Below, one piece after another: positions 21,170-36,931 of a DNA stretch of 64,000 nt. The position numbers and the translations under genes were made by a program. The DNA is taken from the NCBI GenBank assembly GCA_902798745.1, contig CADBXM010000007.1, positions 11,317 through 75,316 of the forward strand. The letters are read 5' to 3'. Numbering within the stretch: the stretch's first letter is position 1; the number at the start of each line of letters is the position of its first letter. This DNA comes from an uncultured Eubacteriales bacterium (GTDB lineage: Bacteria > Bacillota > Clostridia > Peptostreptococcales > Anaerovoracaceae). Under the pieces are notes generated by a model, which ran no database searches, had not been told where the DNA came from, and was given only the letters and a program-made list of their open reading frames with translations.

Positions 21170-21698
21170 TGCCGTACCCCTTTCCTTCAAGTTCTGTTCT
21201 CATCTTTTTAAGAGCTCTGTTGTATTTTGACAGCACCGTGCCGACAGGGACTTCAAGTATGTCTGCGATCTCGCGGTGCTTCAGGCCGGTAAGCGCATGC
21301 AGGACCACGATCTGGCGCTCCTCACTGTCAAGTATGCCCATCGTTTGCTCGAGAACGATCCGATCAACGGCGTCATCTGTCGAAGCAGAAGTGAGGTGTT
21401 CGTATTCGGATATGTCCTCACAGACCTTGCCGGCGCGTATCCTGTTGAGACATAGATTGCGTACTATAGTCAGAAGCCAAGGCATCGGTTTGCCGGAAGG
21501 CCTGTAGCTGATCGCGGCACTGTATGCTCTGATGAAAGCATCATGCATCACATCTTCTGCGTCGTGCTTGTTGCGAAGAATGGACAGCGCGAATCCATAC
21601 ACGGCAGAAGAAGTCTGCCGGTAGAATTCGCTGAAAGCGTCTCTGTCGCCTTCGGCCATTTTTATGATCAAATTTTCATCGAGATGTGATGCGGTCAT
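21159..21698 (-). CDS. ECF-type sigma-70 family RNA polymerase sigma factor
   Basis: Region 2: DAFSEFYRQTSSAVYGFALSILRNKHDAEDVMHDAFIRAY...PWLLTIVRNLCLNRIR. Region 4: REIADILEVPVGTVLSKYNRALKKMR. I chose the start at MTASHL (an alternative is at 21737). Confidence 0.8.
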   Translation of the reverse strand: MTASHLDENLIIKMAEGDRDAFSEFYRQTSSAVYGFALSILRNKHDAEDVMHDAFIRAYSAAISYRPSGKPMPWLLTIVRNLCLNRIRAGKVCEDISEYEHLTSASTDDAVDRIVLEQTMGILDSEERQIVVLHALTGLKHREIADILEVPVGTVLSKYNRALKKMRTELEGKGYGNDR

Positions 21699-21705
21699 TT
21701 TTCTA

Positions 21706-22233
21706 TTACTTCTTGATAAGTTCCCAGTTGTACTCAATTATCTTGCCGGTCGGAGCAAGAACGTCATACTCATATCTGCGGTTGCCTTTCTTGAATTTTA
21801 CTTCATAAACACCCTTGCCGTCATCGTATTCATAGTGGCAGGAGCCTTTTTTGATCGTCTTGTAGCTTATTCCGGAATATTTGGCAACCTTTTTTCTCGC
21901 GGCCTTCTTTCCGATCTTCTCGCGAGAAGAGTTCCTCTTGTATTTGATGTCTACTGACTTTTCAAGGATCTTCCCGGTAGATGCGCTGATCTCATAGCTG
22001 TACTCTTTGCCGTTGGAGTTCTTTACAAACTCTATCTCGTATATCCCGTCTTCACTGTCATAGTCAGATTCTGTGACTGTGACCTTGGACTCCTTGAGCC
22101 CGGCATTTTTAAGAGCTTTTTTGAGGGCGGCATCCTCACTGCTGATGCCTGCTGCAAATGCGGACGCTCCCATTGCCGCAACCATCACAAGCGCTACGAA
22201 CATTGACAGCAGTACATTTATCTTCTTCTTCAT
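21706..22233 (-). CDS. Secreted tandem PepSY-domain protein
   Basis: Signal peptide MKKKINVLLSMFVALVMVAAMGASAFA. Two repeats of the PepSY pattern follow (...DGIYEIEFVKNSNGKEYSYEISASTGKIL... and ...KGVYEVKFKKGNRRYEYDVLAPTGKII). It is the first gene of the sigma/anti-sigma operon. Confidence 0.7.
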   Translation of the reverse strand: MKKKINVLLSMFVALVMVAAMGASAFAAGISSEDAALKKALKNAGLKESKVTVTESDYDSEDGIYEIEFVKNSNGKEYSYEISASTGKILEKSVDIKYKRNSSREKIGKKAARKKVAKYSGISYKTIKKGSCHYEYDDGKGVYEVKFKKGNRRYEYDVLAPTGKIIEYNWELIKK

Positions 22234-22550
22234 GATGTTTACCTCCTGTTCAGTCTGTTTGATTCGTAAGAACCTTACACTATGTATACACACGAACAGA
22301 CCGTTTTATTGCACGGATAACTATTTTCTGAAAATATATTTTGAACAGTCTTAAATATTAATTGACATACTAAAATGCAGTGAACTTGACATAAAATATC
22401 AAAGTTGTTAACCTAAATTTAGTAATGTTTTGAAGAAGCGCAGCATTACCTGTTGATGTTTAATGGAATATATTAATATAATACACAGTCAACTCAGGCT
22501 TGACAGCTCATCATGTTGCGCCAAAATCGCTGATTATAGGAGGAGGGCTT

Positions 22551-23966
22551 ATGAAACTCAAGAGAAGAGCAATAGCACTATTGTTGTCGCTGTCGCTAAT
22601 AATGACATTTATGCCGACACTTGCCTTTGCAGAAAGTAGCAGTTCAGCAAAAGCTGAGGCAAAAAAGGCTATCGCTTCACAGCAAGAGGAAAAAGGACCT
22701 TTATCGAAAGACAAAGACTACAAGGGTGCTAAGGCTGGAGACAACGGTGTCGTTAGAGCCTTAGATGATAATGATTATTACGACGATGATGATTATTATG
22801 ATGACGGTGTATATGACTACGATGGCATATATAGTGGAAAACCAACCATAAAGACGGTTGATGAGCAAAGCGATGGAGTGCTTGACTTTTACTATGATAT
22901 AGAGCCAAACTCCGGCGATTCAATTAAAGTGGATACAGACGAAGGTCAGATTGAGTATAAGTGGCTCCAAGACGAAGATGGAGAATGGTATTTCGAAAGG
23001 CCGAATGATCCTAACGACTGGCTGAGTATAAATAATCTAATCATTGACTATGATTCGACATTTAAGATATATGCAACAAGATATTTATGGGATGATGAAG
23101 AAGACGAATATGTGAGAGAATGGGTTGCGTTAATAGCCATAGGCAAGTATTCAATCAAGAATACTGTTTCAAAGATAACGTTCAATCCTACCAGCATTTA
23201 TTTGGTTGCAGAAGATATAATCAGCTATGAGGATGGAGTACCTTACTACTCACTGTACAAGAGGAGCACACATAAAGTAGGCAACGGTGAATGGGATTCT
23301 GTATTTGCAACAGGAGACAAACTGACTGTCTATTATACTAACGGAATAACACAGGTCTTTACTGATCAAAACAAATATGTAGAATACGAGGATGATGATG
23401 ATTATTATGATGATTGGTTCATGAACGGTGATTATCGTATTTGGCCAGAAATAGATAATACTCAACTGAAGCTCGGAAGCAACACGATTACCTTATCCTG
23501 GCATGGAGTTTCGACGACGTTCAACGTTACAGTAGAGACAGCTGCGCAAAAGGCTGCTAGAATAGCAGAGGAAGCCAGAAAGGCTGAAGAAGCCAGAAAG
23601 GCTGAAGAAGCCAGAAAGGCTGCAGAAGCTAAAAAAGCTGCTGCTGCAAAAGCAAGCAATATCAACAAAGCAACTGTAGTAGCGTCGGACATCAAGAAGG
23701 CATCTGATCTTGGAGTAACATCAATTACTCTCGGAGCAAAGGTTAAAAAGATAAAAAAGAACGCTTTCAAAGGAACAAAGATCACTACAGTCACGGTAAA
23801 GAGTAAAAAGCTGACAGCAAAATCCGTAAAGGGTTCACTCAAGGGCTCGAAGGTGAAAACTATCAAAGTCAAGGTCGGAAACAAGAAAGCCAACAAAAAA
23901 TTTGTAAAGAAGTACAAGAAGATATTCACAAAAAAGAATGCCGGCAAGAAAGTCAGCATAAAATAA
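22551..23966 (+). CDS. Secreted protein with D/Y-rich segments, an (AEEARK)n repeat and a lysine-rich LRR-like C-terminal module
   Basis: A strong AGGAGGAGGG ribosome-binding site. Signal peptide MKLKRRAIALLLSLSLIMTFMPTLAFA. The C-terminal 104 aa are shared with the ORF ending at 62832. Confidence 0.6.
   Translation: MKLKRRAIALLLSLSLIMTFMPTLAFAESSSSAKAEAKKAIASQQEEKGPLSKDKDYKGAKAGDNGVVRALDDNDYYDDDDYYDDGVYDYDGIYSGKPTIKTVDEQSDGVLDFYYDIEPNSGDSIKVDTDEGQIEYKWLQDEDGEWYFERPNDPNDWLSINNLIIDYDSTFKIYATRYLWDDEEDEYVREWVALIAIGKYSIKNTVSKITFNPTSIYLVAEDIISYEDGVPYYSLYKRSTHKVGNGEWDSVFATGDKLTVYYTNGITQVFTDQNKYVEYEDDDDYYDDWFMNGDYRIWPEIDNTQLKLGSNTITLSWHGVSTTFNVTVETAAQKAARIAEEARKAEEARKAEEARKAAEAKKAAAAKASNINKATVVASDIKKASDLGVTSITLGAKVKKIKKNAFKGTKITTVTVKSKKLTAKSVKGSLKGSKVKTIKVKVGNKKANKKFVKKYKKIFTKKNAGKKVSIK
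23566..23640 (+). repeat. In-frame 18-bp tandem repeat (gaagaagccagaaaggct, about 3 copies plus degenerate flanks) encoding (AEEARK)n
   Basis: Directly visible: gaggaagccagaaaggct gaagaagccagaaaggct gaagaagccagaaaggct gcagaagctaaaaaagct. Confidence 0.85.
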
Positions 23967-24065
23967 TACTAATAAACTAAAAACTGTTACAGGCGCCGGA
24001 GAATCAATCAAAGAATACTTTTGATTAGGTTACCGGCGCTTGTTGACCATTAAGACAAAGCAAAA

Positions 24066-26543
24066 ATGCAATTACAGGACGGAATAAGAGGAAAAAGAAT
24101 AATTACGGTGATCATTATGGTCGCCGTCTTGTTATGGTGTTATCCTTTTACATCCTCTGACTTTGTTTCTGAAGCAAAAATGGATCCATCAGGACAGGTG
24201 CTGGTTATGTATGAAGATAATCAGCTTAACGAACCATGTGCAGTAGAAAAAGACAGCGGACAGGAGGTGTCCGAAGACACACAGGAACAGATACTTAATG
24301 AAGCGCTTGGTGATAGCTATACGATAGATGAAACTATAGTGCTCGCTGAAACTGAAGAATCAGAAAATGAGTTGGTCATGGGCGTGATCTCTTCAGAAGA
24401 TCTCAGTGCGGAAGAGATGGTGGATGCTCTTCAGAACATAGAAGGGATTAAATACGCAGAACCAAACTACAAATTCAAGGCATGTGGATTTACCAACTGG
24501 AGTGATACGTACATAAATGATTCCTGGCATTTGGGAGAAAAAGGCATCAATGTGGAAAAAGCTCCTGTGGCTAAGAGCAGTAAAGAATCCATCGTGCTTG
24601 CGGTGATGGATACCGGGATTGCCTATGATCATCCTGATTTGGAGTCGCGAATGTGGTCGGCTCCCGAAAGTGTGGATATCGGCGGCGAACATGGAAAGGA
24701 TTTTTCAGACTTTGACGATGACCCATATGATGAAGAAGGCCATGGTACACATTGTGCGGGCATTATTGCGGCTGCGGCAGACAACGATGAAGGCACTGTC
24801 GGAGTCGTGGGTAAAAACAAAGTTGAGCTCATGTCTGTCAGAGTGCTTGACGAAAACGGAAGCGGTGATCTTTCACAGATTGTCAAGGCCTTTGATTACT
24901 TGATTGACGTAAAGAAGCAGGGCGTCAATATAAAGGCGGTGAACTGCTCTTTTGGCACCGAAGAGAGCTCATCCATCTTAGACAGCGTGATCGATCGTGC
25001 AGGAGAAAATGGCATCTTGACTATCGCTGCGGCCGGTAATGAAAGCTGGAATATTGATGAGCACAGTTGTATTCCGGGCAGCTCCAATTCTCAATATGTC
25101 ATATCAGTAGCGTCTGTAGATGATGACAGTAGTCTTTCCTCTTATTCCAATTACGGAAAAAACAATGTGGATGTGGCTGCACCCGGCAGCAACATACTGT
25201 CCAGCATCTCATACAACAATTACACTCCATATCTCTATGATGCGGAGCAGGTCAAAAATACTACGCAGGTATACGGAGAATTCGGCGGAGCAAGCATTAT
25301 TAAAGATATTGAAACAGGAAAGCCTTCGGTGACACCTGTATTGGGTACAGGATATGACGGGAATAAGATAACTGATGTAGAAGCATTTGGAGCTTCGAAA
25401 ATGTATACGATTTTGTCAGATAGCAGCAGGGGCTATGCTGAACTTAGCATTACTGACGGAAAGGAAAACGGAGCATTTCAAGCAGGTAATAATCAAAAAA
25501 GCCTTAGATGGACGATTAGGAATGCCAAATACGGCGACAAGTATATACTCTATTTCCCTTATACAAAAGTCGATGACGATCCATATGTCAGCATAGTATT
25601 AAAGACACACTCAGATTACGATGAGCATTCCGGCGGAGATCTGTGGCTTGGAGATGTAACGATAGAAGAGGGCGACCAGGGATCGATCAATTATCACACG
25701 TCTTCTGAAAGGACCAGATGGGTACTCGGAAATGACAGGACATATAACAGTATATGGCATGCGTCCGGGGAACACTCCGTATTATATGACAAGGCAAAAG
25801 TAAGAGACCTTTCATATGGATCTTATGGCTTTGGCCTTGTTTATGAGGCCTGGGATGAAGGCGATTTTTATGTAGACATCAGCTCGATCGCTATTTCTTC
25901 TTCACAGGCAAATGAAAGAGACTTCGGGTCTTATGATGTTGCATCAGGAACATCGATGGCTACACCTGTTGTGACAGGCGCAGTCGGTCTTATAGCTGCT
26001 GCGAGACCTGATTTGAATGCGCGGGAACTAAAAAAAGAATTGCTCAAAACCACAAAAGCCAACAAGTCACTTGCAAACAAATGCCTTACAGGTGCAGTTG
26101 TCGACTTTTCATCGTATGGAAGCTCTGTGAAACCTGAAGACAAGAACAGTAGCGATGCGAAAAAAACAGTTATAAAAAAACCTATAGAGAGACAGAAGTT
26201 TGTCTGGGGCGGAAAAAAACTGACTTCTAAGGTTAAAGTGCGTATACATGAAGCGCTCGCGGCTTCGAAGACTCCTAAGAAATTCACGGTGAAGAAAAAG
26301 AACGGCAAGGCAGTTCTGAAATGGAAAAAAGTGAGAGGTATCAATGGGTATATCGTTTTCCGCAAGACCGGCAAAGGTAGGTTCATTCAGATAAAGAAAC
26401 TTTCATCGAAGAAAAAAGCATTTACCGATAAAACCGTTAAAAAAGGTAAGCATTATAAGTACATAATTGTCAGTTATAAAAAAGTGGCAGGAACAAAGGC
26501 GGTGCGTATATCACCGGCAACCAAAGTTAAGAAGCTCAGATAA
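24066..26543 (+). CDS. Secreted subtilisin-like (S8) serine protease with a basic FN3-like C-terminal domain
   Basis: Catalytic triad motifs are present: VLAVMDTGIAYDHPDL (Asp), HGTHCAGIIAA (His) and GTSMATPVVTGAVGLIAA (Ser). The N-terminus is hydrophobic. The C-terminus reads KFTVKKKNGKAVLKWKKVRGINGYIVFRK. The exact start is uncertain because there is no clear ribosome-binding site. Confidence 0.85.
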   Translation: MQLQDGIRGKRIITVIIMVAVLLWCYPFTSSDFVSEAKMDPSGQVLVMYEDNQLNEPCAVEKDSGQEVSEDTQEQILNEALGDSYTIDETIVLAETEESENELVMGVISSEDLSAEEMVDALQNIEGIKYAEPNYKFKACGFTNWSDTYINDSWHLGEKGINVEKAPVAKSSKESIVLAVMDTGIAYDHPDLESRMWSAPESVDIGGEHGKDFSDFDDDPYDEEGHGTHCAGIIAAAADNDEGTVGVVGKNKVELMSVRVLDENGSGDLSQIVKAFDYLIDVKKQGVNIKAVNCSFGTEESSSILDSVIDRAGENGILTIAAAGNESWNIDEHSCIPGSSNSQYVISVASVDDDSSLSSYSNYGKNNVDVAAPGSNILSSISYNNYTPYLYDAEQVKNTTQVYGEFGGASIIKDIETGKPSVTPVLGTGYDGNKITDVEAFGASKMYTILSDSSRGYAELSITDGKENGAFQAGNNQKSLRWTIRNAKYGDKYILYFPYTKVDDDPYVSIVLKTHSDYDEHSGGDLWLGDVTIEEGDQGSINYHTSSERTRWVLGNDRTYNSIWHASGEHSVLYDKAKVRDLSYGSYGFGLVYEAWDEGDFYVDISSIAISSSQANERDFGSYDVASGTSMATPVVTGAVGLIAAARPDLNARELKKELLKTTKANKSLANKCLTGAVVDFSSYGSSVKPEDKNSSDAKKTVIKKPIERQKFVWGGKKLTSKVKVRIHEALAASKTPKKFTVKKKNGKAVLKWKKVRGINGYIVFRKTGKGRFIQIKKLSSKKKAFTDKTVKKGKHYKYIIVSYKKVAGTKAVRISPATKVKKLR

Positions 26544-26584
26544 AAGCAATGGACTAAATATGCATGTGATTAAATTCGAAGTCA

Positions 26585-26620
26585 GCGAGGCTGGGGCTCA
26601 CACCCTGTCCTCGTTTTTTT
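26585..26620 (+). terminator. Rho-independent terminator after the S8 protease gene
   Basis: An imperfect GC-rich hairpin (gcgaggctgggg...caccctgtcctcg) is followed by T7. A second hairpin plus T-run (agcctttt ta aaaggct ttttt) lies at about 26669-26691. Confidence 0.5.
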
Positions 26621-26816
26621 CTAGTTCGTATCTTCTCGCGAGAAGAGTTTATCTTATATTTGATGTTACAGCCTTTTTAAAAGGCTTTTTTAGTATGCTT
26701 CGGACGGGACTTGGTACGTAATGACATATTGAATAAGAGGTTGACGATGGGTACAATAATAATGAGCGGTTCGAATAACGAATAGCGCACAATAAATAGG
26801 AAAAGGAAGGATAGTT

Positions 26817-27503
26817 ATGAAGAAGGTATTATCAAAGGTGTTGTCTTTGTGCATTGCGGTAATGGTGGCATTTGGTCTCATAATAGTTCCGGCTGCTGCT
26901 CCGGCACATGCTGACGGTTTTGTCTCGGGGAGTATAAAGTACAGAAAAAGCATGACGCTGTATTCAGGGTCAGAATACGGAAACGTTTATTTGATCAAAA
27001 TGGGATCAAAGCTTAAAGGAGCCAAGAGTGTCAAGATCAAATCGAGTAACAAAAAGGTCCTGGAACCGTTCGGCTACTACAAAGGGGATAAAGACTTAAT
27101 GGCCAATGCTAAGAAATCAGGTAAGGCTGATCTGACTGTCAAGGTCAAGAAAGGCGGAAAGACAAAGACATATAAGATAAAAGTCAAAGTGGAAAAATCC
27201 GGAAATCCATTCAAGTCATTCAAGGTGGGAAAGAAGAACATCACATCCCAGTTCAAAAGCGAACAAATTGCTGATTGCAGAGTGAAAAACAACTCAAAGC
27301 AGAAGATATCGATCAAGCCGAAAAGCGGAATGAAGATCAAAAAAATCCAGTTCTCTACTTATGATTTCGAAACGGATAAATCTATAAGAAAGAACATCAA
27401 AAATAACAGCACAGTTAAAGTAAAAAAAGATGAAACTAATATATACGTAGAGTTATATGAGAAAAAGAGCAAAATAACATATTGCTACTACGTTTTCATG
27501 TAG
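26817..27503 (+). CDS. Small lysine-rich secreted protein, paralog family member (subtype A)
   Basis: Signal peptide MKKVLSKVLSLCIAVMVAFGLIIVPAAAPAHA. A Big_2-like stretch follows (KSSNKKVLEP...GKADLTVKVKKGGKTKTYKIKVKVEK). It is closely similar to the 28382 ORF. Confidence 0.65.
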   Translation: MKKVLSKVLSLCIAVMVAFGLIIVPAAAPAHADGFVSGSIKYRKSMTLYSGSEYGNVYLIKMGSKLKGAKSVKIKSSNKKVLEPFGYYKGDKDLMANAKKSGKADLTVKVKKGGKTKTYKIKVKVEKSGNPFKSFKVGKKNITSQFKSEQIADCRVKNNSKQKISIKPKSGMKIKKIQFSTYDFETDKSIRKNIKNNSTVKVKKDETNIYVELYEKKSKITYCYYVFM

Positions 27504-27556
27504 AAATCGTTAAAGAGAATAAGGGTCAATACACTGGGACATAGAGGTAAGTGGTG

Positions 27557-28231
27557 ATGAGAAAACAATTCAGCAAAATAATGGCAGCGCTTCTGGCTGT
27601 ACTCGTAGCATTCAGCATGGTGATAATAGATACGGAAACAGCTAGTGCGAAGAGTTCATGGGATGTATATCTTAACAATTACGCTTTTGTTGGACAGCAG
27701 GAGACAGTGTATGCAGGCAATGGCGACGATAGCGCAACTGTGACTTCTGTAAAGTCCGGCAACTCAAAGATCATTAAAGTCAAAAAATCTAAATTTGAAG
27801 GGGTGACTTATTATGATCTGAAGTATAAAAAGACGGGCAAGACAAAAGTGACAGTAAAATTCAAAACTCCTTCCGGAGAAGTCTTTACAAAAACTAAGAC
27901 GATCAAAGTCCTGAAGTATCCTAATCACATCAAGAGTATCAAGATCAATGGGAAGAGCGTTAACGTCAAGAAAAACAAGTACTATTTTGACAAGAAGGTC
28001 AAGGGTACAAGCGTTAACATAAAGATGGCAACCAAGAACGGGTGGAAGATATCATATGCTGATATCAATATGTCTGGTAAAAATAACGAAAAAGAGGTCA
28101 AAAATAGCAAGTCTAAGATCAAGAAGGGCACGACCATTAAATTCCCTAAAGGATACGATTACCTTAGTGCTTGGGTAGAAATGTCAAAAGGAAATAAGTA
28201 CATTACTTATCAGGTATTCCTATATAGGTAA
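27557..28231 (+). CDS. Small lysine-rich secreted protein, paralog family member (subtype B)
   Basis: GAGGT ribosome-binding site 8 nt upstream. Signal peptide MRKQFSKIMAALLAVLVAFSMVIIDTETASA. The motifs ...KKTGKTKVTVKFK...VLKYPNHIKSIKINGKSV...GWKISYADI...YQVFLYR are shared with the 30923 and 33734 ORFs. Confidence 0.65.
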   Translation: MRKQFSKIMAALLAVLVAFSMVIIDTETASAKSSWDVYLNNYAFVGQQETVYAGNGDDSATVTSVKSGNSKIIKVKKSKFEGVTYYDLKYKKTGKTKVTVKFKTPSGEVFTKTKTIKVLKYPNHIKSIKINGKSVNVKKNKYYFDKKVKGTSVNIKMATKNGWKISYADINMSGKNNEKEVKNSKSKIKKGTTIKFPKGYDYLSAWVEMSKGNKYITYQVFLYR

Positions 28232-28261
28232 TAAAGCAAGTGACCGGGCAATGATATTATC

Positions 28262-28297
28262 AAAAACCCCCGCGCGTCTGCGCGGGGGTTTTGTTTT
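28262..28297 (+). terminator. Strong rho-independent terminator
   Basis: AAAAACCCCCGCGC-GTCT-GCGCGGGGGTTTTGTTTT. Confidence 0.8.
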
Positions 28298-28381
28298 CAC
28301 TTAGGGATGTTGGCAGACAGAAGGTATGATATACTGAATCTGTTAATAATTACTATCATCAGGAGATAGGAGGCATCTGTT

Positions 28382-29065
28382 ATGAAGAAGGTATTATCAA
28401 GAATTGCAACACTGACTCTTGCTGTATTCGTGGCATTCGGGCTCATAATAGCGCCGGCCACAGCTTCGGTGCATGCTGATATGTTCGAAGGCTCATATGT
28501 TAAATATGCGAAAAAGATCACGCTGTATGCAAATCCGAAAAGCGATTCCTATTATACGATCAAAATGGGGAAAAGACTCAAAGGAGCCGACAGCGTCAAG
28601 GTCAAGACGAGCAAGAAAAAAGTACTTGCACCGGAATATTATGAAGGCGACACGGACCTCCTTGTCAATGCAAAAAAAGCAGGCAAAGCAAAGCTGACGA
28701 TCACCGTTAAGAAAGGCGGCAAGACTGAAACATACAAGATAAATGTCACAGTTGAGAAGGGAAAAAATCCTTTCAAGTCATTCAAGATCGGAAAGAAGAA
28801 CCTAACCTCCGAGTTTAAGAATAGCGCTTTTTGCAACTACAAAGTAAAAAGCAGCTCTAAGCAGAAGATATCGATCAAGCTTCAAAGCGGAATGAAGATC
28901 AAAAAGATGTTATTCCATTACTACGATCCTAAAGCAGATAGTGATGCAAACAAGACTATAAAAAACAACAGCTCGATCAAGTTGAGAGGCGATGCCGCTA
29001 TCATTCTGAATATTTATGACAAGAAGAGCAAAGTGACATTTACATATATGGTGTACACTTATTAG
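28382..29065 (+). CDS. Small lysine-rich secreted protein, paralog family member (subtype A)
   Basis: TAGGAGG ribosome-binding site. Signal peptide MKKVLSRIATLTLAVFVAFGLIIAPATASVHA. GKAKLTITVKKGGKTETYKINVTVEKGKNPFKSFKIGKKNLTS parallels the 26817 ORF. Confidence 0.65.
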   Translation: MKKVLSRIATLTLAVFVAFGLIIAPATASVHADMFEGSYVKYAKKITLYANPKSDSYYTIKMGKRLKGADSVKVKTSKKKVLAPEYYEGDTDLLVNAKKAGKAKLTITVKKGGKTETYKINVTVEKGKNPFKSFKIGKKNLTSEFKNSAFCNYKVKSSSKQKISIKLQSGMKIKKMLFHYYDPKADSDANKTIKNNSSIKLRGDAAIILNIYDKKSKVTFTYMVYTY

Positions 29066-29111
29066 TAACTGATCGGAGTATCAAGTCGGACGATCCGTTC
29101 CGTCACATGTA

Positions 29112-29153
29112 AAAACGAGCGTCTGTCATGAATGACAGGCGCTCAATTTTTTT
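29112..29153. terminator. Bidirectional terminator between convergent genes
   Basis: AAAAAC-GAGCGTCTGTCAT-GA-ATGACAGGCGCTC-AATTTTTTT. Confidence 0.7.
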
Positions 29154-29175
29154 GTCGGCCATAAAGTGTCAGTTG

Positions 29176-30759
29176 TCAGATATCAAGCAGTTCGGCGTAT
29201 ACCGAAAGCGCGCCGTCTGTCTCGTGGCTCAGGACTCTCTTTGCGAGCACTTTGCCAAGCTGGACGCCTTCCTGATCAAAGCTATTCAGATTCCACAGGA
29301 ATCCCTGGAACATTATCTTATTTTCAAAATGCGCTAGCAATGCTCCCAGCGATTCCGGCGTTAGCTCTTCTCCTACGATGATGCTTGACGGTCTGCCTCC
29401 GTCGAATTGTTTGTTGAGGTCATTATCATCCTTGCCGCAGGCAAAAGCAACGATCTGGGCGGCAACATTGGCGCCCAGCTTCTGCTGACTTGTGCTTCCC
29501 TGGATATCCATATCGACACCGGACTGATTCTTTCTGAATCCAACAAACTGGAGAGGCACGATATCTTTCCCTTGGTGAAGCAGCTGGTAGAATGAGTGCT
29601 GGCCATTAGTACCCGGCTCGCCGAAAAGGACGGGACCGGTCTTGTAGTCGACAGGCTCTCCGAAACGGTTTACGGATTTGCCGTTTGATTCCATATCTGC
29701 CTGCTGCAGATGTGCAGGGAATCTCGACAGGGCCTGTGAGTACGGAAGGACAGCTGTCGTCTCATAGCCCAAAATGTTTCTTTCATAGACGCCGATCAAT
29801 GCATCCAGCATCGCGGCATTGCTGAGAGGGGCCTCATGCGCGGCCAGTTTATCTGCCTCCGCGGCACCATTAAGGAATCTTTCGAATACTTCCGGCCCGA
29901 AAGCGAGCGACAGAACGACTCCGCCTACCGCTGATGTTGAAGAGTACCTGCCGCCAATATAATCATCCATGAAGAAGGCAGCCAGATAATCACTGCTTTT
30001 AGCGAGCGGCGATGTCTCACTGGTGACAGCCACCATATGCTTTGACGGATCGAGTCCCGCGTCCTTGAGTGCGTTCTTTACGAAAGCTTCATTCGTGAGC
30101 GTTTCGAGAGTCGTTCCAGACTTGGACACCAGAATGAACAGAGTGTGCGCAGGGTCGATGGAAGCAAGCACGTTGAGCGCGTCATCAGGATCGACGTTGC
30201 TGATGAACTTCGCATCCATAAGCATGCGACCGTTTGCGCGGGCCCAGTTCTCGAGGGCGATATACATAGCGCGAGGACCGAGATCGCTACCGCCAATACC
30301 TATCTGAACGGCTGTAGTGAATCTCTCCCCGTCAGCATTCGTTATCTCGCCGGAATGTATCTTTGCGGCAAACTCAGATATCTTTGCCTGTTCTTTTTTA
30401 TAGAAATCTCTTTTGTCGACACCGTCCGCGACTACATCGTTGCCAAGCTGCCCGCGAGTGAGATGGTGCAGAACAAGTCTCTTTTCACCGGTGTTGATCA
30501 TGGCGCCGTTGTACAGCTCTTCGAATTTGCCGGCAAGGTCGGAGTCTTTTGCAAGATCGTTCAGCATTTCGAGCACCTCACCGTCGACCTGCTTTGCGGC
30601 ATAGTTGTATGTAAGCCCACACGCCATAGGAACAGAATAATTCCTGACCCTCTCAGCCCCGGCTTCACCCGCGAGGACGTCCTTCAGATCGACACGATGA
30701 TCTGATGACGACAGTTTTTTATATGAATCTAATGTATCAAGGTTTTTCCAATCAGCCAT
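29176..30759 (-). CDS. pgi: Glucose-6-phosphate isomerase
   Basis: The long-form PGI is collinear throughout (…IGIGGSDLGPRA…, …VSKSGTTLETL…, …GEPGTNGQHSFYQLLHQG…). I chose the start at MADWKNL after AAAGGAG (the ORF track begins 33 nt upstream). Confidence 0.9.
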   Translation of the reverse strand: MADWKNLDTLDSYKKLSSSDHRVDLKDVLAGEAGAERVRNYSVPMACGLTYNYAAKQVDGEVLEMLNDLAKDSDLAGKFEELYNGAMINTGEKRLVLHHLTRGQLGNDVVADGVDKRDFYKKEQAKISEFAAKIHSGEITNADGERFTTAVQIGIGGSDLGPRAMYIALENWARANGRMLMDAKFISNVDPDDALNVLASIDPAHTLFILVSKSGTTLETLTNEAFVKNALKDAGLDPSKHMVAVTSETSPLAKSSDYLAAFFMDDYIGGRYSSTSAVGGVVLSLAFGPEVFERFLNGAAEADKLAAHEAPLSNAAMLDALIGVYERNILGYETTAVLPYSQALSRFPAHLQQADMESNGKSVNRFGEPVDYKTGPVLFGEPGTNGQHSFYQLLHQGKDIVPLQFVGFRKNQSGVDMDIQGSTSQQKLGANVAAQIVAFACGKDDNDLNKQFDGGRPSSIIVGEELTPESLGALLAHFENKIMFQGFLWNLNSFDQEGVQLGKVLAKRVLSHETDGALSVYAELLDI

Positions 30760-30833
30760 AAATGTACTCCTTTCACACGAGCATTTTAGCATATTAGACG
30801 AGCTTCGGATAGATGCCTAAGTGGGTTTGCACG

Positions 30834-30863
30834 TTGACCATAGGGGATGACATTTTGTAAAAT
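30834..30863 (+). promoter_or_regulatory. Candidate sigma-70 promoter for the 30923 paralog
   Basis: TTGACC, an 18-nt spacer, then TAAAAT. An analogous element sits upstream of the 33734 paralog. Confidence 0.35.
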
Positions 30864-30922
30864 GTTATAGATTTGTTTGAATGATGAAGTTCGGTCAATG
30901 GATCACAAAGGAGGAAAGGGTA

Positions 30923-31657
30923 ATGAGTTACAAGCTTAAGAGAGCAGTATCGCTGATGATAGCAGTCCTTGTCGCGTTTGGCATGATGACTTTTGGCACC
31001 GGAGAAGCCAACGCGGCATCCGGTAAGGTCAAAGTAATCGTAAAGAGTCAAGACTTAGACAATACAATCTATGTAGGGGAAGAAGGTTGTGTATGTGCAT
31101 ACAATCCAAAGAAGGGCGATTTTGCAATAGTCAAGGCTGTAATAATAACCGATAAATCCATTGCCAGGGTCAAAAGAACTACATACAAATATAAAGGCAA
31201 AAAGTACAAGGAGTACTATGTTGTCGGAAAGAAGTCGGGTAAAACAAAATTAAGCGTTAAATACAAATATAAAGGCAAAACAAGCACCAAAAAGTTGACA
31301 GTTACTGTAAAAGAGTATCCGAATGCAATACAGAGCCTTACAATTAACGGTAAGGACCAATCACTTACAGGAGAAAATGCGTTCAGATACACGAAAAAAT
31401 ACAGCAAAAAGAACACAAAGGCCAGTATAAAGATGATCCCTGCAGAAGGCTGGAAGATCTCTTATGCTTATGGTGAAATTGGTTATCCTAAGGGCAAAAC
31501 TTATAAATCTAACGTAATCAAAAAAATGGCGACAAAAATTAAAAAAGGAACAGAAATCTCTTACCCAAAAAAGTATACTGACATGTGGATTACCGTTACT
31601 CTGGAGAATAAAAAAGGAGACCTTTTCAGCTACAGTATTGGTTTATATAGATTTTGA
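30923..31657 (+). CDS. Small lysine-rich secreted protein, paralog family member (subtype B)
   Basis: AAAGGAGGAAAGGG ribosome-binding site. Signal peptide MSYKLKRAVSLMIAVLVAFGMMTFGTGEANA. KEYYVVGKKSGKTKLSVKYKYKGKTSTKKLTVTVKEYPNAIQSLTINGK...GWKISYAY...YSIGLYRF. Confidence 0.65.
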   Translation: MSYKLKRAVSLMIAVLVAFGMMTFGTGEANAASGKVKVIVKSQDLDNTIYVGEEGCVCAYNPKKGDFAIVKAVIITDKSIARVKRTTYKYKGKKYKEYYVVGKKSGKTKLSVKYKYKGKTSTKKLTVTVKEYPNAIQSLTINGKDQSLTGENAFRYTKKYSKKNTKASIKMIPAEGWKISYAYGEIGYPKGKTYKSNVIKKMATKIKKGTEISYPKKYTDMWITVTLENKKGDLFSYSIGLYRF

Positions 31658-31817
31658 TCACTATAGCTTTGTTCCTTTGTAATTGAGCCCCTATAACTTT
31701 ATCTGGGGTCAAGCAAAATGACGCTTTTGCATTATTTGGGGTAAGAGTGAACACGGGGTGCACAACTGACTGAACTGCTGTCCGTCAAGAGGACAGTGAA
31801 TAGTTAAAAGGTTTAGG

Positions 31818-31860
31818 CAACCAGTAACAGCAATGTTGCTGGTTGTTTATTTAGTTGTTC
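31818..31860 (+). terminator. Rho-independent terminator-like hairpin
   Basis: CAACCAGTAAC-AGCAAT-GTTGCTGGTTG followed by TTTATTTAGTTGTT. Confidence 0.55.
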
Positions 31861-32063
31861 CCCTCGCTGGGGAGGCAGGTCAGCAGCGTGTTCCCGCTGC
31901 TGACGCAAAAGAGGGTATTCCGTGTCGCTACGTCAAGCGCTGCTCGGCCTTCGGCCTGCGTACTGTCACTTGACTCCTTTCCCGCTCCATGCGCATATTG
32001 AAATGATGTGTGGATTCGTGAGTGACTATGCGCTGCGAGAAGATATGTAGGGTCATACCCCAA
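31861..32063. ncRNA. Candidate structured RNA or MITE-like element (GC-rich, hairpin-dense, non-coding island); class unknown
   Basis: Several perfect stems are visible: GTCAGCAGCG/CGCTGCTGAC (10 bp), GTCAAG/CTTGAC enclosing GGCC-TTC-GGCC, GCGCATA/TATGCGC, and CCCTC...GAGGG. The island is clearly more GC-rich than the AT-rich 622-nt intergenic region around it. The only ORF is an unconvincing 70-aa reading frame. Confidence 0.25.
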
Positions 32064-32279
32064 AAGAAGTTAAAGGGCCTTTTTCAGTTGCTATGGAAAT
32101 AACTAAAAGTATAGTCAGTATAATATGCATTGAACTAACTTAGAGATACAGCTTGTTGACGTTAAATGGCGGTGGGGTTACAATTATCTACAAATAAATA
32201 TATGTGTAATGTTATGTTTTAGTAGATTAGTGAAAAAGAATATAGACAGATTAAAAAGTAAATACATAAGGAGGCCGGC

Positions 32280-33422
32280 ATGAGAATCAAAGAAATGAAC
32301 AGTAACCTTATTAGATTATTATCGATTACACTTTTTACATTTTTGATAGTGTTTGCTTTATTTTATGATTCATCTTTTGCTTCTGACTCAAACAAGAAGA
32401 CGTTAGTTTCTCAAAGAACCTTACATTTTGCTGACTATTATGAAGAGTATGATGAGGAAGATGCAACACATTCTTCCAGTTCCCTTTCATTCAAGTTTAA
32501 GACGGATCGAAAAATGGTTTTTATGATGCCATTAACAATCCGGTTTGGTTATGATGATCTTGTAAGTGAAGGTGGAATAAGAGTTGTATTAAGAAATGAG
32601 CATGGAGATGTAATTCAGAATGATTATATTAGCTTGAACGGTTACGGCGGCGGTGTCGATTTCGAGGATTGGCTCTATAGTGATGGCTTTTTTCAAAAAG
32701 CTGGATCATATACATATACAATTACATGGAACGCAGACGAAGATATTGATTTAAAGTGTTCAGTAATAGGCTATTCAAAAATTGCGAAAAAGGCAGAAAT
32801 AAAGAAAAAAGTATCAAAGCGTAGCGGAAATTGGGTTAAGATAGGGAAAATTGAAGGTGGACTCCCTTATGTAAAGAAGTTTAAATCTTCTAATAAAAAA
32901 GTCGTACAGTACTGTGATGTAAAAGCAAATGGCTCAGTCTATGTTTATGCAAAAAGGAAGGGAAAAGCAAAAGTAACCATTACCTTACAAAATGGTAAAA
33001 AGTACTCTTCCAATGTTACAGTAAAGCCTGGCGATTTCAACATGATGGCATTTGTTTATGACTACGCAACAAGGGATAATTATTTTGTAGTAAAGGTGAA
33101 GAACAATAGTTCAAGCCCAATTACAATTATTAGAAATGGTGGTAAGGTAAAAAATGTAGATTACAAGTCATATGACCGAAATATTAAAGGTGGAAATGTT
33201 ACGGTAAAGCCGGGAAAAACTAAATATGTAAGATTTTACTTAAAAGGCTCAAATACTTGGTATGATTACTCAGATTTCACATTATACTCCAAGATAAGAT
33301 ATGAAGGTAAAACATATGAATGGCACGTGTGGGATGAAGATAGCGTATATAAAAAGAATAAGAAATGGTATGCTACCTATTGGAACGACAATCAGTATGA
33401 GAATTGGGTAGATGCAGATTAG
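32280..33422 (+). CDS. Membrane-anchored or secreted multi-beta-domain protein with a Big_2-like module, unknown function
   Basis: AAGGAGG ribosome-binding site. The N-terminus is hydrophobic (LIRLLSITLFTFLIVFALFY). KKFKSSNKKVVQYCDVKANGSVYVYAKRKGKAKVTITLQNGKKYSSNVTVKP is Big_2-like. The gene is visibly more AT-rich than its neighbours. Confidence 0.55.
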   Translation: MRIKEMNSNLIRLLSITLFTFLIVFALFYDSSFASDSNKKTLVSQRTLHFADYYEEYDEEDATHSSSSLSFKFKTDRKMVFMMPLTIRFGYDDLVSEGGIRVVLRNEHGDVIQNDYISLNGYGGGVDFEDWLYSDGFFQKAGSYTYTITWNADEDIDLKCSVIGYSKIAKKAEIKKKVSKRSGNWVKIGKIEGGLPYVKKFKSSNKKVVQYCDVKANGSVYVYAKRKGKAKVTITLQNGKKYSSNVTVKPGDFNMMAFVYDYATRDNYFVVKVKNNSSSPITIIRNGGKVKNVDYKSYDRNIKGGNVTVKPGKTKYVRFYLKGSNTWYDYSDFTLYSKIRYEGKTYEWHVWDEDSVYKKNKKWYATYWNDNQYENWVDAD

Positions 33423-33554
33423 AAAATAATACAATAATTGACATGCTTGTATGATAGTCCTGCATTTTAATCATCACATCAAGCGAAATATGCCAGTACA
33501 AATAAATAAGTAAATAGTAGCATAATAGCCGCAATGTCTTGATCAGTACTGGAC

Positions 33555-33606
33555 TAGATCGGGGGGGCTCAACCGGCAATGTTGAGCCCCCCGATCTATT
33601 TATTTG
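33555..33606 (+). terminator. Strong rho-independent terminator
   Basis: TAGATCGGGGGGCTCAAC-CGGCAAT-GTTGAGCCCCCCGATCTA followed by TTTATTTG. Confidence 0.75.
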
Positions 33607-33646
33607 AACGCCCCGCATTTTGTTGTAAATAACGATTGCTTGCCCG

Positions 33647-33676
33647 TTGACTATATATAATGGCTTTTTATAATAT
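33647..33676 (+). promoter_or_regulatory. Candidate sigma-70 promoter for the 33734 paralog
   Basis: TTGACT, an 18-nt spacer, then TAATAT. Confidence 0.35.
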
Positions 33677-33733
33677 GAATACAACAAAACAAGCATCAAA
33701 TTGTTTAGACTGGTTACAAAGGAGGGCGTGATT

Positions 33734-34456
33734 ATGAAATTTGGACTTAAGAGAGCCATGTCGCTGATGATAGCGGTTTTTGTCGCTTTCGGCATGATGG
33801 CAGTCAGCACAGGTGAAGTAAATGCGGCATCCGGCAAAGTTAAGGTAGAAATAAATAATCAAATTGAAAAAACTAACCATATTTATGCAGGCGAACAGAC
33901 TTATGTCGCTGTATATAACACCAAGCAGAAGAAAGTAAAGATCAAGTCTGTCAAAGTAAGTGACAAATCGATCGCAAAGGTCAAGGTAAAAACTTTAAAA
34001 TATGCTGGTAAAAAAAATAAAGAATATTATGTCGTAGGGAAACAGCCGGGCAAAACAAAAGTCAGCGTCAAGTACAAATGCAATGGCAAAGCAGGCACCA
34101 AAAAAGTGACTGTTACTGTAGTGCCGTATCCGAATCCTCTTGCGAGCCTTGAAGTAAACGGCAAGAACGTACCTCTGTCAGGTGACACAGGTTTCTTATA
34201 TGAAAAGAAATGCAAAAAAACAAAAGTCAATATAAAAGCTGTTGCGGCAGAAGGCTGGGAAATTACCTCTGCAGACAGTCGTTCTGTTTATGGAACCGCT
34301 AAAAATCCTAAATTCAAAGACACGGGAGTGAAGAGCAAGATCAAAAATGGGAAAACAATTAGTTTCCCTAAGAAGCATAAAGCTTTGTACACAAGCATTA
34401 ATCTGGAAAATGATGAGGGAGTCGTCGTATTCTACGAGATCGTTCTCAAAAGATAG
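33734..34456 (+). CDS. Small lysine-rich secreted protein, paralog family member (subtype B)
   Basis: AAAGGAGGG ribosome-binding site. Signal peptide MKFGLKRAMSLMIAVFVAFGMMAVSTGEVNA, nearly the same as in the 30923 ORF. KEYYVVGKQPGKTKVSVKYKCNGKAGTKKVTVTVVPYPNPLASLEVNGK...GWEITSAD...YEIVLKR. Confidence 0.65.
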   Translation: MKFGLKRAMSLMIAVFVAFGMMAVSTGEVNAASGKVKVEINNQIEKTNHIYAGEQTYVAVYNTKQKKVKIKSVKVSDKSIAKVKVKTLKYAGKKNKEYYVVGKQPGKTKVSVKYKCNGKAGTKKVTVTVVPYPNPLASLEVNGKNVPLSGDTGFLYEKKCKKTKVNIKAVAAEGWEITSADSRSVYGTAKNPKFKDTGVKSKIKNGKTISFPKKHKALYTSINLENDEGVVVFYEIVLKR

Positions 34457-34595: not shown

Positions 34596-35681
34596 ATGAC
34601 ATTGATAAAGAAAAGAAGAATTAAAAGAGTTTCAATAATAAGCCGTGAGAGTGACGCCCGCACTCTTGACGTCGCTATGCTCGAAGCGGAACTTTTGAGA
34701 CGCGGCATCAAAGTAACTGTGCTGAGCAGACTTTTGACCAAAGAAAAGTCTTTAAAGGCCCTTGGTTATGCCGGGCATGTGCTGAGACAACAGGCAGAGA
34801 TACTCAGATCGGATGTTGTCGTGCTCGACACGTACTGTATTCCGGCAAGCATGCTGCCACACCGCAAGGAAACGAAAGTGGTGCAGATATGGCATGCGCT
34901 CTCAGCCATTAAAAAATTCGGTTGGCAGACTGTCGGTAAAGAGGGCGGCTCGTCCGAGAAAGTGGCGAGACTGATGCGCATGCACCATGGCTATGACTAT
35001 GTGGTCTCTTCAAGCGACATTACCGCAGAGCATTTCTGCGAAGCATTCAAGGTCGAACAGAGCAAGATAGTCAAATGCGGTTTGCCGCGCATAGACTATG
35101 TAAAGAGCGTTGCTTTAGGTGATAGGCGCGCTGATATGCTTTCGAAGATACATGCGGCATATCCTCAGCTGAATAACGGAAAGAAGACCATACTGTATGC
35201 GCCTACATTTCGCAAGGGGGCTACAGTCGATCCGGAGGAACTTGCGGCTGCGCTTGACCCCGGGAAGTACGATCTGATCGTGAAGCTCCATCCTCTTTAC
35301 AGGGGAGCTGAGTCCGACGCTAGGCACGAAAGAGAGAACGTCATATATGATGACGACTTCTCATCATTCGATTGGCTGTCGGCTGCAGATATAATAATCA
35401 GCGACTACTCATCGCTTGTCATAGAATCTACGCTTGCGGACAAGCCGCTATATATTTACGCGTACGACCTTGATGACTACGAGGCAAACACCGGCCTCAA
35501 CGTAGACTTCAGCAGCGAGCCTATAGCTCCGTATGTATTCAGCGACGCGAAGGAAATGGCAAAGGCTATAGATGCAGGCGACTACGATCTTGGCGCTTTG
35601 CGCGAATTCAGGGATCGCTATATAGATATTGATACAAACAATTGCACAGCTGCACTGGCAGACTTCATCGAATCATTATGA
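34596..35681 (+). CDS. CDP-glycerol glycerophosphotransferase, short TagB/TarB-like form
   Basis: ...ILYAPTFRKG...DLIVKLHPL...IISDYSSLVIESTLADKPLYIYAYDLDDY. The 361-aa length fits a TagB-like enzyme. The stop overlaps the next start (ATGA). Confidence 0.7.
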   Translation: MTLIKKRRIKRVSIISRESDARTLDVAMLEAELLRRGIKVTVLSRLLTKEKSLKALGYAGHVLRQQAEILRSDVVVLDTYCIPASMLPHRKETKVVQIWHALSAIKKFGWQTVGKEGGSSEKVARLMRMHHGYDYVVSSSDITAEHFCEAFKVEQSKIVKCGLPRIDYVKSVALGDRRADMLSKIHAAYPQLNNGKKTILYAPTFRKGATVDPEELAAALDPGKYDLIVKLHPLYRGAESDARHERENVIYDDDFSSFDWLSAADIIISDYSSLVIESTLADKPLYIYAYDLDDYEANTGLNVDFSSEPIAPYVFSDAKEMAKAIDAGDYDLGALREFRDRYIDIDTNNCTAALADFIESL

Positions 35682-36931
35682 GCATCACACAGATATTCAG
35701 AAAAACGATTTTTGACATAGCCAAGAAGAACAAAGCGTTCCGCATTGCTTTCAGGAAGAGCAGGGATGCCGCTTACAGTGTCAAAATGATACTGGACGAT
35801 CCTTTCGGGAAGATAGACGACAAGCTGGTCTACTTCCAGACTTTCTCGGGACGCGGCTACAGCGATTCGCCTAAGGCTATGTATGAATACATGCTGAGCG
35901 CGCCGGAATATAAGGATTACCGCTTCGTGTGGAGTTTCAAGGAACCCGAAAAATTCAGCTTTCTGCTTCAGAACGGCCGGACGGAAATCGTAAAGTTCCG
36001 CACACGCGCGGATAACATAGCTCTTCGCACGGCAAAGTACTGGATCACAAACTACCGCATGCTTGACCACCAGCTGCCGCGAAAGGGACAGATATACCTT
36101 CAGTGCTGGCATGGGACTCCGCTCAAGAGGCTCGGATACGATATCAAAGAGGGCGACAATGTAATGAACTCGCTGTCTGAGGTGAGAGAAAAATACAGGA
36201 GCGACGCAAAGCGTTTCGCCTATCTTCTTTCGCCTTCGCCGTTCGCGACCGAAAAATTTGCCACGGCATGGAACCTGATCGAGACGGGTCAGACGCACAA
36301 GATAATAGAGGAAGGCTATCCGCGCAATGACAGGCTCATCAACACTACTGAAGAAGAGCGCAGGGAGATAAGGAAGCAGCTGGGCGTAGACGATAAAAAA
36401 GTCATACTTTATGCTCCGACCTGGCGCGACAACCAGCACACGAGCGGGCAGGGCTACACCTACAAAACTGAGGTGGATTTTGACAAACTTCAGAAGGAGC
36501 TCGGTGGGGAATACGTGATACTGTTCCGCGCTCACTACCTTGTAGCCAACAGCTTTGACTTCAGCAAATACCCGGGCTTCGTTATCGACATGAGTTCTTA
36601 TGGCGACATAAACGAGCTCTACATAGCATCCGACCTGCTTGTGACCGATTACTCGAGCACATTCTTTGACTACGCGAATCTTAAAAAACCGGTCATCTTC
36701 TACATGTATGACCTTGAAGAATATGCCGGAGAGCTGCGAGGATTCTATCTTTCGCTAGACGAGCTCCCGGGACCGATCGTCAGAGACGAACAGAGCCTGA
36801 TAGATGAGGTGAGAGCGTGCTATGGCAGGCAGCCTGATGAGAAATACGAAGCATTCAGCAAGAGATTCAATCCGCTGGATGATGGCCACGCTTCGGAGCG
36901 TGTCCTGAAGAGGATAATGGAAAATGCTTGA
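35678..36931 (+). CDS. CDP-glycerol/ribitol polyol-phosphate transferase (TagF/TarF family)
   Basis: ...VYFQTFSGRGYSDSPKAMYEYM...LQCWHGTPLKRLGYD...ILYAPTWRDN...LLVTDYSSTFFDYANLKKPVIFYMYDLEEY...GFYL...LPGPIV. Confidence 0.8.
   Translation: MSITQIFRKTIFDIAKKNKAFRIAFRKSRDAAYSVKMILDDPFGKIDDKLVYFQTFSGRGYSDSPKAMYEYMLSAPEYKDYRFVWSFKEPEKFSFLLQNGRTEIVKFRTRADNIALRTAKYWITNYRMLDHQLPRKGQIYLQCWHGTPLKRLGYDIKEGDNVMNSLSEVREKYRSDAKRFAYLLSPSPFATEKFATAWNLIETGQTHKIIEEGYPRNDRLINTTEEERREIRKQLGVDDKKVILYAPTWRDNQHTSGQGYTYKTEVDFDKLQKELGGEYVILFRAHYLVANSFDFSKYPGFVIDMSSYGDINELYIASDLLVTDYSSTFFDYANLKKPVIFYMYDLEEYAGELRGFYLSLDELPGPIVRDEQSLIDEVRACYGRQPDEKYEAFSKRFNPLDDGHASERVLKRIMENA

Follow-up and report, generated by a model that had tools for sequence, protein, structure and literature searches.

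What keeps a very lysine-rich exported protein on a bacterium when its sequence carries no recognisable anchor? The question was raised by a 64,000-nucleotide stretch of contig CADBXM010000007.1 (the window), from an uncultured Eubacteriales bacterium, where five paralogous genes between positions 26,817 and 34,456 (A1, B1, A2, B2 and B3) encode small secreted proteins made of two beta-domains, D1 and D2. The host is a Mogibacterium-like member of the Anaerovoracaceae; a homologue was annotated as Mogibacterium sp., the closest syntenic genome was an Anaerovoracaceae metagenome-assembled genome (G068), and further matches came from sheep-rumen and RUG assemblies. We favour, at slightly better than even, the reading that these proteins are exported by Sec and then stay on the anionic wall by electrostatic attraction through a conserved, lysine-covered face; their variable face may, speculatively, bind an outside ligand or act as a shield.

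Charge of the module and its anchoring context

All five open reading frames were intact and began where the initial annotation had placed five very lysine-rich, two-domain paralogs. The proteins contained 18.8-21.5% Lys and hardly any Arg, with a net charge of +30 to +36 and a pI of 9.9-10.0; the mature size was about 21 kDa. By inspection, each N-terminus had a basic N-region, a hydrophobic stretch and an AxA-type cleavage site. A lipobox, an LPXTG motif or a C-terminal membrane segment was found in none of the five, and the GK(T/A)x(V/L)(T/S)(V/I) and hinge motifs were present in all of them.

Lysines in the conserved strands of the family alternated with core hydrophobic residues; these columns had an entropy of 1.7-2.0 bits and were 23-32% basic. 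The N-terminal half of D1, the D1 loop at 46-58 and the C-terminal strands of D2 had an entropy of 2.9-3.3 bits and were 13-15% basic, and two further variable segments of D2 remained basic. From the strand alternation, and not from a three-dimensional surface map, we infer that the module has a constant basic face and a variable face.

The charge followed the context in which the module was found. Among stand-alone members (n = 147), D1 was basic in 93% and D2 in 98%, and the module was also basic when it formed the C-terminal part of neutral or acidic proteins (P0032, P0145, P0157 and P0180). It was acidic, with a net charge of -0.09 to -0.17 per residue, in four relatives that carried another anchor. 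Two of these had modules with 2-3% Lys and a net charge of -0.15, followed by C-terminal choline-binding repeats (P0103/L026) or by a basic FN3 domain at the C-terminus (L027); the other two were acidic D2-like domains in lipoproteins (L138 and L139). The fold therefore does not require lysines, which have disappeared in the relatives with another anchor. The two acidic lipoproteins (L138:795-1622 and L139:754-1539) come from two other genera of the bacterial family and have an N-terminal D2-like domain and no D1.

Lysine-rich regions were not confined to the D1-D2 proteins. When secreted-like proteins were picked out by a crude signal-peptide heuristic, 61 of 180 contained a 90-residue segment with at least 20% Lys, versus 22 of the 1417 other proteins of the genome. 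These regions were often C-terminal and occurred on several unrelated types of exported protein, including a subtilase; the five proteins of the window headed the list of lysine-rich secreted proteins. The lysine coat would then be a lineage-wide retention device used on many folds and not special to this family.

No match to SLH, CWB2 or DltD was found in the genome, which is 93% complete. Choline-binding repeats (PF01473) and PF03217 also gave no match, in searches that had no working positive control. A single LysM domain, a few sortases and six TagF-type transferases (PF04464) were detected. This gene content indicates a polyol-phosphate wall polymer, apparently without D-alanylation, and few dedicated anchors. 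Because the exported proteins are generally lysine-rich, anchors are few beside a polyol-phosphate polymer and the charge follows the anchoring context, binding to the cell's own anionic wall polymer is probably the main mode of retention.

A precedent exists in Lactobacillus SlpA, in which a positively charged domain binds teichoic acid (PMC11181022). Like the SlpA TAB/SLAP domain (PF03217), the D1-D2 module is small, strongly basic (as judged by composition) and found on exported proteins; the same non-covalent mode, acting on a polyol-phosphate polymer, is proposed for it. However, the TAB/SLAP domain showed no sequence match to the family and was absent among its structural matches. The phosphate-site motif of SlpA (YxY....KxxN) occurred in 0 of 147 members and in none of the nine copies in this genome, and PF03217 gave no match to them. 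By the tests run, the family lies outside the SlpA TAB and S-layer families.

Predicted folds, family size and tree

An AlphaFold prediction for B1, made with an alignment of 147 sequences, gave two beta-sandwiches with a predicted local distance difference test score (pLDDT) of 97.2 and a predicted template modelling score of 0.87. The best structural match of D1 was SbsB (Z 10.6, root-mean-square deviation 2.3 over 82 residues, 27% identity), followed by LigA (Z 9.0), phage decoration domains (Z 8.3-8.5) and a Big_2-CBM56 chain (Z 8.1), and the Big_2-like first domain described earlier was thereby recovered at the level of the predicted fold. D1 has the same fold as Big_2 (PF02368), which is found in Geobacillus SbsB, Leptospira LigA/LigB and phage tail or capsid decorations. 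It was through D1 that the family profile picked up proteins with Big_2 repeats, and both domains of the family were matched by an Atlas cluster in which PF02368 reached 90% (TM 0.74). In contrast to Big_2 repeats, D1 is present as a single copy, nearly always paired with D2, and lysine-coated. It also scored below the Pfam cut-off: the best of the five proteins reached 16.1 bits against a gathering threshold of 22.8, and a PF02368 match at E ≤ 0.01 was seen in 3 of the 147 members. The Bacillales S-layer proteins (SbsB, SbsC, Sap and EA1) also consist of chained immunoglobulin (Ig)-like domains and include the nearest structural neighbours of D1, but each of them comprises at least six domains and is tethered by a dedicated wall anchor, whereas the present proteins are built of two domains, show average codon adaptation and are patchily distributed.

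D2 folded alone with a pLDDT of 97.3. All its structural matches were Ig-like sandwiches of a generic kind (best Z 7.4), a result that does not amount to a new fold, and Foldseek gave no match at E 1e-3. D2 aligned end to end with a 29-sequence alignment of the cadherin-like family PF12733, weakly (E 5e-4 to 2e-3, HH probability 15-30%), and the Atlas feature search pointed to the same family (0.80-0.84). However, none of the D2 sequences scored on the PF12733 model, and D2 is marked by YxNPxKS, GW(K/E)I and KNG motifs of its own and by an additional helix or loop. The PF12733 model did not appear in the list of 25 families for the 147 D2 sequences and gave no match in the genome at E 1e-8.

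Several other assignments were considered. An enzyme role was rejected, since no D, E, H or C column was conserved above 20% in the family alignment. A link to expansins (bacterial expansin D2, CBM63, EXLX1) came from one profile match at E 0.71, which was lost with a deeper profile and was not listed in the fold searches. The only match above a cut-off, T2SS-T3SS_pil_N on B3 (24.5 versus 23 bits), was read as a generic match to Ig strands. Pfam and NCBIfam held no convincing family for the five proteins, PDB sequence searches gave nothing below E 0.05, and no family match was obtained from phage, plasmid and IMG/VR collections or from a JGI pattern scan. Literature searches found no description of the family, which agrees with its initial labelling as uncharacterised. 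The family is uncatalogued; D1 alone can be placed in Big_2, on the basis of its fold.

The genome contained nine complete copies of the family. The five genes first described were all in the window, and four more were present, one each on contigs C3, C4, C6 and C15, among unrelated genes and away from wall-polymer genes. Contig C3 carried another cluster of genes for basic secreted proteins (L003; G000:C3:32000-45000), which included one family copy and a Big_2 protein; in L090-L092, a homologue of this Big_2 protein was flanked by family genes. Other genomes also had tandem arrays, each of 3-4 members (L029, L089 and L090-L092).

D2 was detected in 13 of 67 genomes of the genus (8 of the 29 of high quality) and in 5 genomes of other genera when 250 were drawn from the bacterial family. 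It was found in 1 of 400 genomes drawn from the class and in none of 400 drawn from the phylum, with few candidates scored per genome, so that these figures are not proof of absence. A representative library gave 226 clusters at E 1e-30. Since the larger counts at looser thresholds (3459 at E 1e-3 and 1623 at 1e-10) included D1-only or signal-peptide-only matches, 226 is the sole safe indication of family size. Of 296 proteins retrieved, 216 were single D1-D2 proteins, 26 were D1-D2-D1-D2 doubles and a few were fusions. Most of the family came from rumen or gut samples (Anaerovoracaceae, other Clostridia and GC-rich contigs); some doubles were on contigs of 55-58% GC and, by this GC content, probably belong to another lineage.

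Beyond the pairs given in Table 1, protein identity was 33-36% between B1 and B2 or B3 and 27-34% between A and B proteins (E 1e-5 to 1e-9). In a quick tree of the whole family, the split between subtypes A (26817, 28382) and B (27557, 30923, 33734), already recognised in the initial annotation, was a deep branch (SH-aLRT, an approximate likelihood-ratio support value, 99). The nine copies were scattered over the same tree, with 9 label changes, 6 of them forced by starred branches. Since they fall separately, they are best read as old lineages gained and lost, with no recent burst. Recent amplification within the genome, or gene conversion of the array, was ruled out by these scattered positions together with synonymous sites near saturation. 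The signal peptides of B2 and B3, once described as nearly identical, shared 22 of 31 residues and 68 of 93 nucleotides, with synonymous sites near saturation, and are better called similar.

Diversifying selection among the paralogs, raised in the initial annotation, was not borne out. Pairwise ratios of nonsynonymous to synonymous substitution (dN/dS) were 0.10-0.48 in most domain comparisons and reached 0.75 among young duplicates in G066; values of 0.10-0.75 point to purifying selection, with no gene-wide positive selection. One case of domain exchange was seen among the 147 sequences. On a metagenome contig, P0005 was followed 221 bp on by P0004, a near-copy of B3 that differed at residues 2-4 and one other site, without the intervening 32280 gene or the insertion sequence (IS)-end remnant. 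P0005 was 97% identical to B2 in D1; its D2 was 58% identical to B2 and 88% to P0007, and the switch lay at the hinge. The pattern suggests a single recombination tract that runs from the hinge of B2 into the signal peptide of B3, although it was read from protein only and an assembly chimera is possible.

Arrangement and history of the locus

The features of the locus are listed in Table 1. Besides the five genes and pgi, which had been described before, the array contained a 380-aa secreted protein gene and an IS-end-like remnant that had been left out.

Table 1. Features between positions 26,817 and 36,931 of the window.
Feature	Coordinates	Strand	Description
A1	26817..27503	+	Clade A; signal peptide, D1 (Big_2-type) and D2 (unnamed beta-sandwich); 228 aa, 21.5% Lys
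B1	27557..28231	+	Clade B; 224 aa; starts 53 bp after A1; protein used for folding
Intrinsic-terminator-like hairpin 3' of A1-B1	28263..28292	+	13-bp stem, T tail
A2	28382..29065	+	Clade A; 227 aa; 58% identity to A1
Hairpin between convergent A2 and pgi	29117..29144	.	Probably a shared terminator; hairpin search and sequence
pgi (glucose-6-phosphate isomerase)	29176..30759	-	527 aa; named from the initial annotation and sequence motifs
Sigma-70-type promoter match TTGACC-18-TAAAAT 5' of B2	30834..30863	+	Kept in the G068 ortholog
B2	30923..31657	+	Clade B; 244 aa; G068 ortholog; strain allele P0005
IS-end-like remnant	31769..31851	.	83 bp; 88% identity to a repeat at three contig ends of the same genome
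380-aa secreted protein gene	32280..33422	+	AT-rich (GC 0.33, GC at third codon positions 0.27); one central Big_2-like domain, no D2; outside the family
Terminator-like hairpin 3' of the 32280 gene	33562..33592	+	Hairpin search
Promoter match TTGACT-16-TATAAT 5' of B3	33647..33674	+	11/12 positions
B3	33734..34456	+	Clade B; 240 aa; 51% identity to B2
TagB-like and TagF-like polyol-phosphate transferases	34596..36931	+	Scores below NCBIfam equivalog cut-offs

The GC content of the five genes was 0.37-0.40, versus 0.48 for the genome. Their codon adaptation index (CAI) was average, at 0.45-0.48 (47th-66th percentile; ribosomal reference 0.71). A1 and B1 are probably co-transcribed. Given the terminator-like hairpins 3' of B1, between A2 and pgi and 3' of the 32280 gene, A1-B1, A2, B2 and B3 are probably separate transcription units. 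Similar promoters with an 18-nucleotide spacer had been proposed for B2 and B3; the B2 site stood, whereas the B3 site was better read with a 16-nucleotide spacer, the 18-nucleotide version being weaker. Promoter-like sites across the region were at chance level (22 observed versus 18.7 in shuffled sequence).

Between B2 and the 32280 gene, positions 31660-32280 were non-coding and held the IS-end-like remnant followed by a GC-rich hairpin segment; both were bracketed by an imperfect 32-nt inverted repeat (31715-31746 / 32053-32084). Rfam gave no family in the region except a Leu-leader match on a terminator, which was judged to be chance. The 32280 gene was missing from G068 and from the conspecific strain contig carrying P0005 and P0004, and is therefore probably a recent arrival.

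In 4 of the 11 genus genomes holding both (this genome, G068, G048 and G066), family genes were the immediate upstream neighbours of the tagB-like gene. No family gene was present at 20 further tagB loci, including four in genomes with the family elsewhere. The family and tagB did not co-occur significantly (11/13 versus 37/54 genomes; Fisher p = 0.32). The link to an anionic-polymer locus drawn in the initial annotation thus holds as adjacency in four genomes and does not extend to the four of nine copies located elsewhere or to the other tagB loci. At several of those loci, different secreted proteins with basic tails occupied the same slot, indicating that the slot before tagB is a general landing place for surface-protein genes. 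At L077:190-9327 (G015), an open frame of 3045 codons ended in tagB-like sequence and may be a giant fusion or a read-through artefact.

This type of pgi was detected in 35 of the 67 genus genomes. The order pgi-B-tagB was shared only with the closest relative, G068; in each of the 20 further relatives examined, pgi lay beside different genes. The proposal that the array had grown around a fixed core gene is wrong, since pgi changes its neighbourhood across the genus. Among the 21 genomes examined, pgi occupied at least 5 different neighbourhoods, an unusual mobility for a glycolytic gene. Similarity of DNA to G068 was continuous from pgi into B2. G068 was without the 6.85 kb between the PepSY gene and pgi (window 22322-29175), which here contain the 22500 gene for a D/Y-rich secreted protein with a basic tail, the 24066 gene for a subtilase with a basic tail, A1, B1 and A2, and it was also without the stretch from the end of B2 to tagB. 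A broken A1 ortholog, frameshifted and internally deleted, lay in G068 at L030:7110-7672, between genes for an ABC-transporter ATPase and an anti-sigma factor. Because two relatives had family genes before tagB and no pgi there, pgi would have moved to an existing B gene. The most likely history is that a B gene stood first before tagB, that pgi moved beside it and that further surface genes were added on both sides. Further upstream, positions 19982-22293, assigned by inspection, encode an extracytoplasmic function sigma factor, an anti-sigma factor with PepSY-like repeats and an acidic tail, and a basic secreted PepSY-like protein, all kept in G068.

Wall retention weighed against other readings

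On the reading that we favour, the N-termini suggest export by Sec and release by signal peptidase I. The exported proteins would be kept non-covalently on a polyanionic wall made by the six TagF-type transferases and would contact it through the lysine-covered face of both sandwiches. The less basic hypervariable segments may, speculatively, be the working surface, most likely for binding an outside ligand or else as a shield over the wall polymer. Under purifying selection, the repertoire would be renewed as genes are gained and lost and as paralogs recombine. A wider proposal, which we regard as tentative and rather doubtful, is that in rumen Mogibacterium-like bacteria a fold-independent lysine coat replaces anchor domains on a teichoic-acid-type wall, the family being a set of minimal binders in which a basic face for retention stays constant and the other face is hypervariable, its two domains being swapped among paralogs by recombination at the conserved hinge.

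Several observations weigh against retention on the wall. The acidic cases number four, and the two lipoproteins among them match D2 distantly (L138: HH probability 78%, E 2e-5). P0089 has neutral modules and no visible anchor. The family profile was seeded with lysine-rich sequences and therefore preferentially finds basic members. The family was present in 13 of 67 genus genomes versus 48 with tagB, and adjacency was confined to the 4 of 11. The count of secreted proteins depends on the crude heuristic, the lysine face was derived from strand alternation, and DNA, mucin or pectin would be equally suitable ligands for a basic surface.

In an unlikely alternative, the proteins leave the cell and serve as adhesins, bridges or biofilm-matrix components. 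The main ligand of their basic surface would be a polyanion from outside, such as extracellular DNA, mucin, or the pectin or acidic xylan of feed particles, and not the cell's own wall. Big_2 and cadherin-like sandwiches are common in adhesins and in accessory regions of glycanases (neighbours included LigA, SraP, intimin and GH10 and GH43 modules), the family is accessory and mostly from rumen or gut samples, and most copies do not adjoin wall genes. However, the loss of lysines where another anchor is present fits a retention signal and not ligand binding, and dozens of unrelated exported proteins, the subtilase among them, carry the same coat on their tails.

The structural neighbours of D1 raise a different idea, that these are small S-layer or S-layer-associated lattice proteins which self-assemble like the basic Slp paralogs of Lactobacillus, with cassette exchange for surface variation. 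The top D1 matches were indeed S-layer domains (SbsB at Z 10.6 and 27% identity, with EA1, SbsC and Sap), and a pI of about 10, several paralogs and one recombinant allele would suit it. It is nevertheless improbable: the average CAI (47th-66th percentile), a proxy for expression, is unlike that of a dominant S-layer gene, the mature protein is just about 21 kDa, the family was not found in most genus genomes searched, Big_2 is widespread in non-lattice proteins, and the SlpA TAB motif was seen in 0/147 members. We give just as little weight to a role as decoys or shields against phages or cationic antimicrobials, in which the proteins would coat the non-alanylated polymer, neutralise its charge or hide receptors and replace the missing Dlt system, the variable segments being minor. 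The lack of a DltD match, the genes adjoining tagB in four genomes, and repeated gain, loss (the broken A copy in G068) and swapping typical of conflict genes speak for it; the absence of gene-wide positive selection, the average codon adaptation and the lack of matches in phage, plasmid and viral collections speak against it, and the acidic versions could not shield a polyanion.

The surprise is moderate, since the parts of these proteins are ordinary Ig-like folds and retention on the wall by charge has been described before. For rumen and gut bacteria, the family adds a sizeable surface module that had not been catalogued, and the apparent flip of its charge with anchoring context offers a natural experiment on how proteins are retained in Clostridia without SLH, CWB2 or choline-binding domains.

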